Shown: one piece after another, positions 408 through 5,955 of the stretch
Numbering within the stretch: the first letter of the stretch is position 1
How the letters are laid out: the number at the start of each line of letters is the position of its first letter
IMG/VR virus record: IMGVR_UViG_3300029374_000071
Span: 1-5,955 of that record
DNA length: 5,955 nt
Origin: a virus
Reading direction: 5' to 3' (one strand)
Translations under genes and position numbers: made by a program
The notes under the pieces: generated by a model
The model's database searches: none
What the model saw: only the letters and a program-made list of their open reading frames with translations
What the model was told of the DNA's origin: nothing

Positions 408-1277
408 TTAATTTCCTGTATACGCGTCCATTATTTGATTAGGATTGATTGATGGATATGGTGTGATGTTTTTCCCACCTTTTTTCCAACTGTCTTTAAA
501 AGCTGATGCGGCTTTTCTGCCTGCACCTTTTACTGCGTTGCCCGCTTTATCTCCTGCGTCTCCAAGCTTGTCAAGCAAGTTGTTTGCCGCGTAGCTGTAA
601 TTGCTGACCTGTTTTGCACTTGACTGTGCTAGACTGCTTGCCGCTTCTTCAAAGCTCTTTGCTGAATGGTATTGTTTTGCGCTGGTGCTCTTTTTTGCCA
701 GTTCTAAGTATCTGTTTGCTAGCTCTGCAGTGTTGTTGCCGTACTCATACATAGCAGATACTGCTGCCGCCTGTGCGCTCTGCTGGTTGTAGTGTTGTGT
801 TCCGATGCTTGCGCTTGCTCCGCTTGGTGTTGCTGTAGCACCGTTGTTTGCTGCTAGTATAGGATTGATACCCGCCGCGATCATGTCCTTTACAGTGTCC
901 TGATATGCTGTTCCCCGCATTTCTTTTGCAAAGGCTCTTTCTGCCGCTGCTTCTGCGCTGTTGTACTTCTTTGCGCTTGCTTGGCTGCCTGCGTTCATGA
1001 CATTACTTAGAATTGAGCTTAAGTAGCTTAGCTTGTTTGCGTTGTTTACGCTTCCCTGATTGTTGTATGTTGTGATGCCTGTTGGTGTTCCAATTTGCGT
1101 TGAACCAATTTGCTGTGGCGCTGTTAGGCTTCCGGTTGTCGTTTCGCTTCCGGTTGTCGTTTCTTCTCCGGCTTTTTGACTGCTTTGTGCATTGCTTGTG
1201 TTCGTGTTTTGTATGATGCCTGAGATTAGACTAAGCCCCTGCATTATGTACGGCATCCATGATAAAAGTGTACCCAT
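408..1277 (-). CDS. DNA pilot / minor capsid protein (VP2-like, analogous to phiX174 H).
   Basis: The 289-aa ORF lies directly downstream of the major capsid gene, as in gokushoviruses. Its composition is low-complexity and rich in A/Q/S/G/N/T, typical of microvirus VP2/H pilot proteins. The Shine-Dalgarno GAAAGGAGAAA lies upstream, separated from the ATG by a hairpin. Assignment rests on position and composition, not on a recognised motif. Confidence 0.6.
   Translation of the reverse strand: MGTLLSWMPYIMQGLSLISGIIQNTNTSNAQSSQKAGEETTTGSETTTGSLTAPQQIGSTQIGTPTGITTYNNQGSVNNANKLSYLSSILSNVMNAGSQASAKKYNSAEAAAERAFAKEMRGTAYQDTVKDMIAAGINPILAANNGATATPSGASASIGTQHYNQQSAQAAAVSAMYEYGNNTAELANRYLELAKKSTSAKQYHSAKSFEEAASSLAQSSAKQVSNYSYAANNLLDKLGDAGDKAGNAVKGAGRKAASAFKDSWKKGGKNITPYPSINPNQIMDAYTGN
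1131..1166 (-). repeat. In-frame 18-nt tandem duplication inside VP2, encoding ETTTGS-ETTTGS.
   Basis: tccggttgtcgtttcgct at 1131-1148 and tccggttgtcgtttcttc at 1149-1166 on the plus strand. The protein shows ...GEETTTGSETTTGSLT... Confidence 0.85.
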
Positions 1278-1279
1278 TT

Positions 1280-1305
1280 AAAAATAGCCGGGTCTTTGCC
1301 CGGCT
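1280..1305 (-). terminator. Rho-independent-terminator-like hairpin between the VP1 stop and the VP2 start. It also sits between the VP2 Shine-Dalgarno and its ATG.
   Basis: Minus-strand reading: TAA(VP1 stop) GAAAGGAGAA AGCCGGG-caaaga-CCCGGCT ATTTTTAA ATG(VP2). There is a 7-bp GC stem, a 6-nt loop and a downstream T-run. Confidence 0.55.
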
Positions 1306-1315
1306 TTCTCCTTTC

Positions 1316-2965: not shown

Positions 2966-2990
2966 GCGCGGTACTTGCGCGAAATGCGAT

Positions 2991-3401
2991 TCACTGTTCC
3001 GGTTCGTTCTTCTTCACCTCTTCTTTCTTTTCTTCCTGCTTCGGCTGTTCGGTCTGTTTCAGCTGTTCCAGCGTTTCTGCTGCCGCCTGTGCCTTTTCTT
3101 GCATCGCCACAATGTCTTTAGGAAGGTTTTCCAGCGGCGTGCCTTCGGTGTAAATCGTGCTCTTTGCTTTGATGGAAATATCTCCGGCTTCCAGTCTCGC
3201 GATTGCGCTTGCAAGGTCGTAGCCCTCGCCTGCCTTCTGGATTTTTTCATAGATATTTTCATCTGGCTGTCGGATGTACTCCGTGGTGCCGTTTGCCCGC
3301 TTTACCGCCTTCCATGTCGGTGCCTTTTCGCTTCCGGCTTTGTTTGCCACTCTTTCGGTTGGCATTCCGTAGTAACGTATAAGGACGTTAGGATTTAGCA
3401 T
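2991..3401 (-). CDS. 136-aa highly charged protein immediately upstream of VP1. It may be an internal scaffolding or DNA-binding protein (VP3-like); the function call is tentative.
   Basis: A strong RBS TAAAGGAGAACATCA precedes the ATG at 3401. The start overlaps the stop of the upstream 84-aa ORF by 14 nt. The C-terminus is extremely K/E/Q-rich (EQLKQTEQPKQEEKKEEVKKNEPEQ). The ORF ends 25 nt before the VP1 start. Confidence 0.6.
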   Translation of the reverse strand: MLNPNVLIRYYGMPTERVANKAGSEKAPTWKAVKRANGTTEYIRQPDENIYEKIQKAGEGYDLASAIARLEAGDISIKAKSTIYTEGTPLENLPKDIVAMQEKAQAAAETLEQLKQTEQPKQEEKKEEVKKNEPEQ

Positions 3402-3642: not shown

Positions 3643-3647
3643 ATTTT

Positions 3648-3753
3648 ATTCCTCTTTTTCAAGCTCTTCTGCGTCCTTCACGACTGCGTGGTAGATTTTG
3701 TCTACCATTGCAAGGATTTTCAGCAGGATGTTCATGGTTTCTTTAAAGTCCAT
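3648..3753 (-). CDS. Candidate 36-aa small ORF (MDFKETMNILLKILAMVDKIYHAVVKDAEELEKEE). It is not in the supplied track because it is under 60 aa.
   Basis: Hand translation of the minus strand. The ATG at 3753-3751 follows a textbook RBS, AAAAGGAGATGAACAG-ATG. The stop TAA at 3650-3648 lies 5 nt before the 84-aa ORF start. The sequence has a hydrophobic core and an acidic tail. Confidence 0.4.
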
Positions 3754-3906
3754 CTGTTCATCTCCTTTTATTGTTCCATGTGGAATATTACAGCCGGATA
3801 CCGCCCCGGCTTACCTTCGGTCGGACGTTGATATTTTTCGTCCGTTTTGCGGTCTGCGTAAATTTCCGCTGGTCGCCACGGCCTGCGCCGCTCCGATGTG
3901 ACATTT

Positions 3907-4293
3907 TTACACCCCCTTTCTGTAATATCCTTCGCGAACGTCTACGTGAACAAAATTTTTGTAGCATATTACCCCGCCGTAGTTTTTCATGTATTCGCTC
4001 GCGAATTTTGCTATTTCTTTTGGTGATACATCCTTTATCCTGATGTCTGCTGCCATTCCTTTACAATGATAGCTGTTCTTTGATTTTCCTACTTGTGTAT
4101 TCCACCATGGCGTTCTGTAGCCGCTGTTTACAATCACAGGTTTATTGAAGTTATCTCGAATCATTTCCAGTACTTCGAGTAGTTCTTGGCTTAACAGCAG
4201 TTCTTTTGCTCCGTCTTTGCTTGCCATTTCTTCCGCTGTGAAGTATGCTGAATGTATTTTTGTGTTTCTGTTGATGCAGTAGATTTTTCTCAT
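3907..4293 (-). CDS. Peptidase_M15-like (LAS-family zinc metallopeptidase), a putative peptidoglycan-hydrolysing endolysin.
   Basis: The block SGYRTPWWNTQVGKSKNSYHCKGMAADIRI...FVHVDV matches the His / Asp / His zinc-ligand arrangement and SGYR motif of Peptidase_M15_3 / VanY-like enzymes. The track ORF extends to 4323 only through an upstream TTG. The ATG at 4293-4291 has an excellent RBS (GGAAAAAGGAGCAATAGC-ATG), so I take 4293 as the start, giving 128 aa. Confidence 0.75.
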   Translation of the reverse strand: MRKIYCINRNTKIHSAYFTAEEMASKDGAKELLLSQELLEVLEMIRDNFNKPVIVNSGYRTPWWNTQVGKSKNSYHCKGMAADIRIKDVSPKEIAKFASEYMKNYGGVICYKNFVHVDVREGYYRKGV

Positions 4294-4368
4294 GCTATTG
4301 CTCCTTTTTCCGTATTGTACCAAGCAAACTTCTGGTTGTCAACTGGGAGTTTGCTTCTTTCATGTTTT

Positions 4369-4572: not shown

Positions 4573-4608
4573 GATTATATTCTATCATATTTTTGGGATT
4601 TTTTCAAG
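4573..4608 (-). promoter_or_regulatory. Sigma70-type promoter for the 60-aa ORF and downstream genes.
   Basis: Minus strand: TTGAAA (complement of 4607-4602), then the 17-nt spacer AAATCCCAAAAATATGA, then TAGAAT (complement of 4584-4579) with an upstream TG (extended -10), followed by ATAATCAC. It lies about 25 nt upstream of the ATG at 4551. Confidence 0.5.
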
Positions 4609-4640
4609 TTTTTTTCAAGTTTTTTTCAAGTTTTTTTCTG
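4598..4640. repeat. Three tandem 11-nt repeats TTTTTTTCAAG (minus strand CTTGAAAAAAA). These are phased A-tracts with 11-bp periodicity, each carrying a -35-like TTGAAA.
   Basis: CAAG recurs at 4605, 4616 and 4627 with T7 runs between. The array is flanked by further T/A runs (ctgaaaattttt). Confidence 0.85.
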
Positions 4641-4658
4641 AAAATTTTTCCTAGGATA

Positions 4659-5769: not shown

Positions 5770-5773
5770 AGGT

Positions 5774-5806
5774 TTGGCGCAAGTTCACTTGTCTATCTTG
5801 CGCCAA
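5774..5806. promoter_or_regulatory. Perfect 10-bp inverted repeat TTGGCGCAAG-N13-CTTGCGCCAA, ending 4 nt upstream of the Rep ATG.
   Basis: Arms at 5774-5783 and 5797-5806 are exact reverse complements. On the mRNA strand the 3' arm is followed by ACCT-ATG. No Shine-Dalgarno lies between the repeat and the start codon. Confidence 0.6.
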
Positions 5807-5838
5807 TTGACACCTCTCTTTCGTTTTTAATTTAAATT

Positions 5839-5872
5839 GCGTGCGCGTGCGCGTTTCGCGCGTGCGCGCGCA
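5839..5872. repeat. Two alternating purine-pyrimidine (Z-DNA-prone) tracts, GCGTGCGCGTGCGCG and CGCGCGTGCGCGCGCA, separated by TTT. The second tract is duplicated at window positions 5-20.
   Basis: Read directly from the sequence. The 10-bp perfect palindrome TGCGCGCGCA is at 11-20 and 5863-5872. Confidence 0.7.
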
Positions 5873-5955
5873 ATACCTTAGCATCAATCGATGCGACAGC
5901 CCCCGCGTTAGGGGGCGACGTCGCAAGGGGGCCGTTAACGGTAGTTAACGGCCCC
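5853..5955. repeat. Right copy of the 103-nt terminal redundancy. Its hairpin and Z-prone elements duplicate those at 1-103.
   Basis: Exact identity to 1-103. Confidence 0.85.

Follow-up and report, generated by a model that had tools for sequence, protein, structure and literature searches.

The hairpin between the capsid gene VP1 and the pilot-protein gene VP2 of a gokushovirus genome resembles an intrinsic terminator and probably sits inside a split ribosome-binding site for VP2, a position from which, judged by comparative sequence analysis, it would play a dual role, as a leaky stop for transcription and as a bridge for translation. The Shine-Dalgarno (SD) element lies on the far side of the hairpin from the VP2 start codon, and the arrangement recurs, with different stems, in a large number of relatives.

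Genome context of the VP1-VP2 junction

The window, that is, the whole stretch of 5955 nt that was analysed, is a complete circular gokushovirus-type microvirus genome with a unit length of 5852 nt. Its two ends (1-103 and 5853-5955) are identical over 103 nt, so that the 5852-nt circle was evidently assembled with a terminal overlap. The minus strand is the coding strand for all genes in the window (Table 1), and the nearest GenBank records are the human-gut gokushoviruses KT264784, KX513864 and KX513876. In addition to the profile given in Table 1, several PHROGs annotated as 'pilot protein for DNA ejection' match VP2. The 38-aa protein (MSHRSGAGRGDQRKF...) is highly basic and is probably the DNA-binding J/VP8 analogue. 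For the M15 peptidase, the automatic ORF call puts the start at TTG 4323; the true start is likely the ATG at 4293 (MRKIYCIN...), 7 nt past AAGGAG 4306-4301.

Table 1. Coordinates of genes and junction elements in the window
Feature	Position	Strand	Basis or remark
VP4 replication protein	5769-4774	-	
60-aa ORF	4551-4369	-	
M15 peptidase	likely start ATG 4293	-	
38-aa basic protein	3790-3904, start 3904	-	below the 40-aa listing threshold; good SD
35-aa ORF (MDFKETMN...)	3646-3753, start 3753	-	below the 40-aa threshold; AAGGAG 3767 upstream
VP5	3642-3388	-	
VP3 scaffold	3401-2991	-	
VP1 major capsid protein, 549 aa	1316..2965	-	Pfam Phage_F E 1.5e-145; phrog_514
VP1 stop TAA	1318-1316	-	sequence, ORF list
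Shine-Dalgarno element GAAAGGAG, core AAGGAG 1313-1308	1308..1315	-	sequence
Hairpin AGCCGGG 1305-1299 / loop CAAAGA 1298-1293 / CCCGGCU 1292-1286	1286..1305	-	fold, covariation
U-rich tail UAUUUUUAA, U-run 1284-1280	1278..1286	-	sequence
VP2 start codon AUG	1275..1277	-	first start of ORF
VP2 DNA pilot / minor capsid protein, 289 aa	408..1277	-	phrog_18604 E 1.5e-128

Several features outside the junction were recorded in the same analysis. The VP2-VP4 non-coding region (~1-405 plus 5770-5955, minus strand) is a candidate replication-origin or regulatory region; it carries many copies of UUUCAACA(G) at ~405-245, a (CUA)n microsatellite at ~235-220 and a cluster of GC-rich hairpins that includes a perfect 13-bp stem (75-87/92-104). 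Just upstream of a promoter-like TTGAAA-17-TAGAAT, AAAAAAACTTGA occurs three times in tandem (within 4579-4655, minus strand). Another promoter-like site, TTGACA-17-TACAAT with a TG extension (4314-4342, minus strand), directly precedes the M15 peptidase gene and is overlapped by a 17-nt imperfect inverted repeat (4322-4356). An extended -10 in the sigma-70-type promoters, together with strong AAGGAG SDs, presumably argues against a Bacteroidota host. A search for the host by way of prophages, in which genomes were scanned with VP1 and the M15 peptidase, gave no match.

A GC-rich hairpin separates the VP2 Shine-Dalgarno element from its start codon

On the minus strand the junction reads TAA G AAAGGAG AA [A-GCCGGG-CAAAGA-CCCGGC-U] AUUUUUAA AUG, with the hairpin in brackets. 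A single base, G1315, separates the VP1 stop from AAAGGAG (1314-1308), and the gap between this SD and the stem is 2 nt (AA 1307-1306). The hairpin takes up 20 nt, with 7 bp (six of them G-C) and a 6-nt loop; the tail that follows, made up of A1285, UUUUU (1284-1280) and AA (1279-1278), forms an 8-nt spacer to the VP2 start. An earlier note on this DNA had claimed a GC stem-loop with a T-run between the two genes, and the element is indeed present at 1305-1286, where it folds alone at -13.0 kcal/mol. The 76-nt context folds at -18.9 kcal/mol (z = -2.2). The same note had placed the only SD of VP2 5' of the hairpin and about 30 nt from the ATG, and this holds: the distance is 30 nt along the linear sequence, there is no SD downstream of the hairpin, and with the 20-nt hairpin looped out the distance falls to 10 nt.

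The anatomy of the element is that of an intrinsic terminator, with a GC-rich 7-bp stem and a short loop followed by UAUUUUU. In the terminator scan it comes out as terminator-like on either strand, and on the coding strand it is the sole candidate in which a GC-rich hairpin (6 GC pairs) is joined to a T-run. Over the whole window, terminator-like matches are at chance level, with 10 observed and 9.8 expected from shuffles. The covariance models of Rfam 15 gave no match at the junction, and their three matches elsewhere in the window (E 0.6-0.96) fall below the gathering thresholds. With single-sequence statistics as modest as these, the window sequence alone establishes the existence of the hairpin and not its importance; it is the comparative evidence that excludes chance.

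The VP2 start at ATG 1277 is the first that is possible after a stop in the ORF table, and the same start is annotated in GenBank relatives. The phrog_18604 profile aligns to VP2 from residue 3, and in relatives synonymous substitutions begin at VP2 codon 2, with the intergenic sequence upstream nearly invariant. In-frame ATGs at codons 8 and 12 were considered as alternative starts and rejected: neither has an SD, and the N-terminus is conserved as protein. More generally, an alternative VP2 start with a conventional SD was sought in the ORF table, in relatives and in the 62 unique modules described below, and none was found. The 8-nt tail AUUUUUAA holds no SD-like or purine-rich motif, and none occurs at the canonical distance in any of the 62 modules. 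We also considered a small ORF that might be served by the upstream SD, and rejected it, as every variant is free of ATG, GTG and TTG in the 5' arm and its vicinity.

The sequence AAGGAG is found at four sites on the coding strand, against 3.3 expected, so over-representation is not at issue and the argument is one of position, not of count. The three other sites lie 7-8 nt before the starts of the M15 peptidase, the 35-aa ORF and VP3, and VP5 has GAGGA 7 nt before its AUG. The canonical SD-AUG spacers in this genome are A-rich, not U-rich. VP1 and VP4 are without a canonically spaced SD and, given these two genes, the host may be capable of SD-independent initiation. In the predicted folds, weak G-U pairing joins GGAGA to the U-run, and this could slightly mask the SD. 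The predicted masking is marginal: in the window, freeing the SD from the U-run costs 1.8 kcal/mol against -8.7 kcal/mol for the SD:anti-SD duplex, and across variants the cost is 0.6-1.8 kcal/mol against duplex energies of -8.7 to -11.7 kcal/mol.

The stem is maintained by compensatory changes in close and distant relatives

A VP2-based search of IMG/VR returned 79 loci, and all of the 60-odd that contain the junction show the order SD-hairpin-U-run-AUG with the same spacing. The main stems of this clade, GCCGGG/CCCGGC and GCCCCGC/GCGGGGC, differ at two adjacent pairs, where G-C is swapped for C-G; a third version, with U-A, is present in L067, and L028 has a U-G intermediate. Among 53 unique clade sequences, 96% of cells are paired, compensatory change affects two pairs and the covariation score is not reached in any shuffle. 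The columns of the SD are 88-100% identical in 51 clade members, and those of the tail are 98-100% identical in the clade, one A/G column excepted. Identity in the intergenic sequence is 0.93, compared with 0.76 at third codon positions of VP1. The U-run is broken in one relative only, L002.

An alignment-based search with VP1 added 73 further loci, in which the capsid protein is 39-55% identical to that of the window. About 28 of these 73 diverse loci carry the same module with different stems, which include GCCCGGA/UCCGGGC, GCCCGGGG/CCCCGGGC, GCCCAGGG/CCCUGGGC, GCCCGCA/UGCGGGC and GGCCGGA/UCCGGCC. In 30 representatives, 94% of cells are paired as against 15-56% with slid partners. Compensatory change is seen in five of the nine pairs and the covariation score is reached by 0 of 500 shuffles, with the caveat that the stems vary on a GCC(C)GG theme and independent compensatory events are fewer than sequences. 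Covariation thus rules out a chance hairpin, and on this comparative evidence we regard it as virtually certain that the hairpin is a structure under selection for base pairing.

When all loci are pooled, there are 62 unique modules with 18 distinct stems. The gap between SD and stem is 1 nt in 47 modules, 2 nt in 12, 3 nt in two and 4 nt in one. The tail measures 8 nt in 38 modules, 9 nt in nine and 10 nt in 13 (8-10 nt in 60 of the 62), and opens with AUUUU(U/A/C) in 54. From SD to AUG, the modules span 28-34 nt linearly and 8-13 nt effectively, with a mode of 9; in one relative, L166, the effective spacing is ~16-18 nt. The GGAG/GGGG core of the SD is kept across lineages whose capsid protein is ~40% identical. 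The loop varies among relatives (CAAAGA, AAAA, GAAA, CAAUA, GUU), and the wobble pairs U-G and G-U are tolerated in the stem (L028, L166). The earlier note had proposed comparison with related genomes and had made its reading depend on conservation of the stem; in the relatives the stem is conserved, with 94-96% of cells paired, and is kept through compensatory changes across the 62 modules and 18 stems.

A scan of IMG/VR for the exact pattern AAGGAGGAAGCC-N8-20-GGCTATTTT matched at least 120 contigs, and nearly all of the 80 matches listed are contigs of microvirus size. As judged across these loci, a large group of uncultured gokushoviruses has the order SD-hairpin-AUG as its standard design. 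The position of the SD had been described as unusual; it is so among bacteria, and it is absent from phiMH2K, Chp2 and SpV4, but it is standard in the roughly 28 of 73 distant loci and in the contigs, at least 120 of them, that match the pattern.

Alternative junction layouts act as natural controls

Relatives with other layouts show where the SD stands when the hairpin is missing or differently placed. One group has no hairpin and a plain TAA-GGAGGTGCAAA-ATG junction. In L124 and L129, a closely similar hairpin (GCCGGGU-CAAA-ACCCGGC-UAUUCUU) is preceded by the SD-free sequence cacaaaaacaaa, and AAAGGAG lies 7-9 nt before the AUG. The hairpin-then-SD order is also found in L102, L103, L153, L165, L171, L074 and the cultured phiMH2K, and the cultured gokushoviruses phiMH2K, Chp2 and SpV4 all lack the split module, having either the conventional order or no hairpin. 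The upstream SD is absent from most hairpin-then-SD junctions, L153, L165, L171, L074 and L103 among them, L100 and L102 carrying an extra SD-like motif there, and no split-type junction has a second, downstream SD. A strong SD on one or the other side of the hairpin is the pattern expected if the SD is that of VP2 in both layouts. The intergenic region measures 51-80 nt in junctions with the order hairpin, SD, AUG, compared with 38-41 nt in most split modules, and a hairpin with a T-run after VP1 is present in the conventional-order L102, L103 and L153 also.

In relatives with enlarged intergenic regions (L016, L043, L166, L181), the added sequence invariably falls 5' of the SD. This argues that SD, hairpin and AUG together make up the VP2 initiation region and are not merely the 3' end of VP1. 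The insertions between VP1 stop and SD in L016/L093 and L181 amount to 80-140 nt and leave the unit next to VP2 intact; they comprise an A-rich stretch in L016 and extra hairpins in L181. A further layout was observed in the environmental loci L079-L082, where the VP1 C-termini are ~45% identical and where, ~40 nt past the VP1 stop, the junction takes the form TAA..AGAGG-C-[CCCCCCC UAAU GGGGGGG]-UGUGACA-AUG. It is perhaps an independent case of the order SD-hairpin-AUG that lacks a U-run, and the G-run itself could be the SD.

A second, possibly hairpin-bridged leader at VP4

The leader of VP4 (5818-5767, minus strand) is built from GAGAGGUG (5818-5811), UCAA, a hairpin (UUGGCGCAAG-AUAGACAAGUGAA-CUUGCGCCAA, 5806-5774), ACCU and the AUG (5769). 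The hairpin has a perfect 10-bp stem (5806-5797/5783-5774) and a 13-nt loop. No SD occurs at the canonical distance in this leader; the distance from SD to AUG is 41 nt linearly and becomes 8 nt with the hairpin looped out. Within the clade, 95% of cells in the VP4 stem are paired, a figure that falls to 18-45% in slid controls; three pairs show compensatory changes, and one pair of the stem is seen as A-U, G-C and C-G. No variation is seen in the loop ATAGACAAG or in the flanking GUGUCAA, and such a loop could have an additional, sequence-specific role, as a protein-binding operator or an origin-like element. The hairpin is followed by ACCU or UAACAAAA, with no U-run, and in the outgroups L074-L076 the hairpin is followed by AAGGAGGTG and then the ATG. 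The VP4 leader thus supports the idea that bridged initiation regions would work in the host of these phages.

We also considered a third bridged site, at VP1, and rejected it: a GCGC-AAGTACC-GCGC hairpin that abuts the ATG is broken in relatives by substitutions without compensation. No SD is found within 20 nt of the AUG of VP1, which is presumably the protein made in greatest amount. The VP1 leader, CCAUUUCGCGCAAGURCCGCGA (within 2966-3020, minus strand), is conserved in sequence, and a conserved GAGGAGGUG lies ~45-50 nt upstream of VP1, inside the end of VP3.

A possible dual role in termination and translation

In the mechanism that we propose, the hairpin and its U-run would end part of the transcripts just after VP1. 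Only 8 nt lie between hairpin and AUG, which leaves no room for a promoter, and the promoter scan found no promoter-like site there; VP2 mRNA can therefore arise only by read-through, so that any termination has to be incomplete. With only 11 nt from the VP1 stop to the start of the stem, the ribosome finishing VP1 may damp termination further. In Escherichia coli, terminators located a few nucleotides past a stop codon are repressed by the terminating ribosome, and ~10-15 free nucleotides are needed for the terminator to fold completely (PMC4824070). On these grounds leakiness would be plausible for a stem 11 nt past the VP1 stop. In the read-through mRNA the hairpin would re-form and loop out its 20 nt, bringing the SD from a non-functional 30 nt to ~10 nt from the start codon, and a 30S subunit bound at AAGGAG could then place the AUG in the P site, as in T4 genes 25 and 38. 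The net outcome would be less VP2 than VP1, and any link with the 60:12 ratio of capsid to pilot protein raised in the earlier note would be conjectural. Placing the terminator within the ribosome-binding site would also save ~10-15 nt relative to the hairpin-then-SD order of related genomes.

The junction has the sequence hallmarks of a split ribosome-binding site: a distant SD, a hairpin between SD and AUG, an effective distance of 10 nt, and a structure that is conserved over and above its sequence. The U-run is conserved at the VP2 hairpin and absent at the VP4 hairpin, which favours a terminator role for the former. We consider it likely that the hairpin functions in a split ribosome-binding site at VP2, and on balance probable that real partial termination takes place after VP1; that both functions operate together, termination and stem-dependent translation, is at best an even proposition. 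Both would depend on the properties that we have assumed for the host's ribosomes and its RNA polymerase.

The hairpin might instead be purely an element of translation geometry, a split or tuned ribosome-binding site without meaningful termination, with the U tail serving as an unstructured A/U-rich spacer. The VP4 leader of the same genome, with its order of SD, hairpin and AUG and no U-run, illustrates that a bridge needs no terminator features, and in the window the stem is short (7 bp, -13 kcal/mol), a broken U-run is tolerated in L002, and terminator-like matches overall are at chance level. Yet AUUUU opens the tail in nearly every one of the 62 modules, although the canonical spacers of the genome are A-rich, and a GC stem of 7-10 bp with a loop of 3-7 nt and a U tract, directly behind the gene with the highest expression, is the textbook signature of a terminator. 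Moreover, L102, L103 and L153 keep hairpin and T-run after VP1 even with the SD in the conventional order. A role in translation geometry and nothing else leaves the conserved U tract unexplained, and we regard it as unlikely. It is quite unlikely, too, that the hairpin acts purely as a terminator or 3'-end stabiliser of the VP1 message. VP2 would then be initiated through an A/U-rich leader or by re-initiation, and AGGAGG would be conserved for another reason such as pairing with the U tract. VP1 and VP4 do indeed lack a canonically spaced SD, GGAGA-UUUUU pairing does appear in folds, and in most genomes a single nucleotide separates the VP1 stop from the SD. However, a pure A tract would pair with the U tract better than GGAGG does, and the GGAG/GGGG core is still kept; the SD stays with the hairpin and VP2 in junctions where 20-140 nt more separate it from the VP1 stop, a downstream SD is always present in genomes that have none upstream, and the distance between SD and stem is 1-2 nt in 59 of the 62 modules.

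A role at the level of DNA was also weighed, in which the hairpin would serve the ssDNA genome in complementary-strand priming, as a packaging signal or as a Rep site. In phiX174 and G4, priming signals are located in the F-G intergenic region, and the hairpin shares with them its location after the capsid gene; with a viral strand of mRNA polarity, the hairpin would be present in packaged ssDNA too. Against this, the loop is not conserved, which makes sequence-specific recognition unlikely, U-G and G-U pairs are tolerated (L028, L166), and much larger GC hairpins are available in the main non-coding region (13-bp stem, 75-104). The fixed distances to SD and AUG would also go unexplained, and we take a DNA-level role to be highly improbable. 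The reading that we prefer is thus the terminator-like hairpin within a split VP2 ribosome-binding site.

Discussion

The VP2 leader can be compared with three known arrangements. Like T4 genes 25 and 38, it has an SD that is too distant along the linear sequence and a stable hairpin that lies wholly between SD and AUG. The T4 hairpins shorten the SD-AUG distance from 22 to 5 nt in gene 38 and from 27 to 11 nt in gene 25, the dependence on the hairpin having been shown by destabilising mutations, reporter assays and DMS probing, and the gene 25 arrangement is confined to close T-even phages (PMC3014915). The likeness to T4 gene 38 drawn in the earlier note agrees with these numbers, the change here being from 30 to 10 nt. 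As with gene 25, the gokushovirus arrangement is kept in one related phage group and is absent from more distant ones. The likeness appears to be one of function: there is no sequence homology, and the phages are ssDNA Microviridae in which a different gene is concerned. In addition, the gokushovirus bridge carries a conserved U tract after a stop codon, whereas PMC3014915 mentions none for T4. The T4 split ribosome-binding site has been proven by mutation and probing, whereas we infer the gokushovirus one from sequence.

Like T_J, T_F, T_G and T_H of phiX174, the VP1-VP2 element is an intergenic hairpin with a U-run behind a structural gene of a microvirus, although in its case termination is something that we infer. 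In phiX174 the SD of the downstream gene comes after the terminator, whereas here the SD precedes the terminator-like hairpin. The phiX174 terminators T_J, T_F and T_G block only 20-40% of transcription, and read-through results in declining transcript levels for the genes downstream (bioRxiv 10.1101/2020.03.05.979765). The conventional gokushovirus junctions (phiMH2K, L124/L129, L102, L103, L153) share with the split module the site after VP1, often a GC hairpin, and a strong VP2 SD; they differ in that their order is hairpin, SD, AUG and not SD, hairpin, AUG.

A search of the open literature, outside which most subscription journals lie, found no prior description of a gokushovirus terminator, hairpin or Shine-Dalgarno element. 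The components are already known, in the T4 split ribosome-binding sites and the leaky terminators of phiX174, and their combination was found in no open-literature description. To our knowledge, natural split ribosome-binding sites number very few cases, essentially T4 genes 25 and 38, and we know of no earlier bridging hairpin with the hallmarks of an intrinsic terminator. The wider picture, of one 20-nt hairpin with two jobs in uncultured gut gokushoviruses, the bridge being reused at VP4 and the loop ATAGACAAG there perhaps serving as operator or origin, is one that we put forward tentatively.

If the proposed reading is true, these abundant human-gut phages would have a family-wide split ribosome-binding site that is backed by many natural compensatory variants, and read-through and a hairpin-dependent ribosome-binding site would together determine the output of VP2. 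Gene callers and start predictors that rely on ribosome-binding sites will misjudge the VP2 and VP4 starts in these genomes, and terminator predictors will put a 'terminator' within the ribosome-binding site of an operon. The element would also be a compact and portable part with which the ratio of two adjacent genes could be set, and for the gokushoviruses themselves it would offer a first handle on the control of gene expression.
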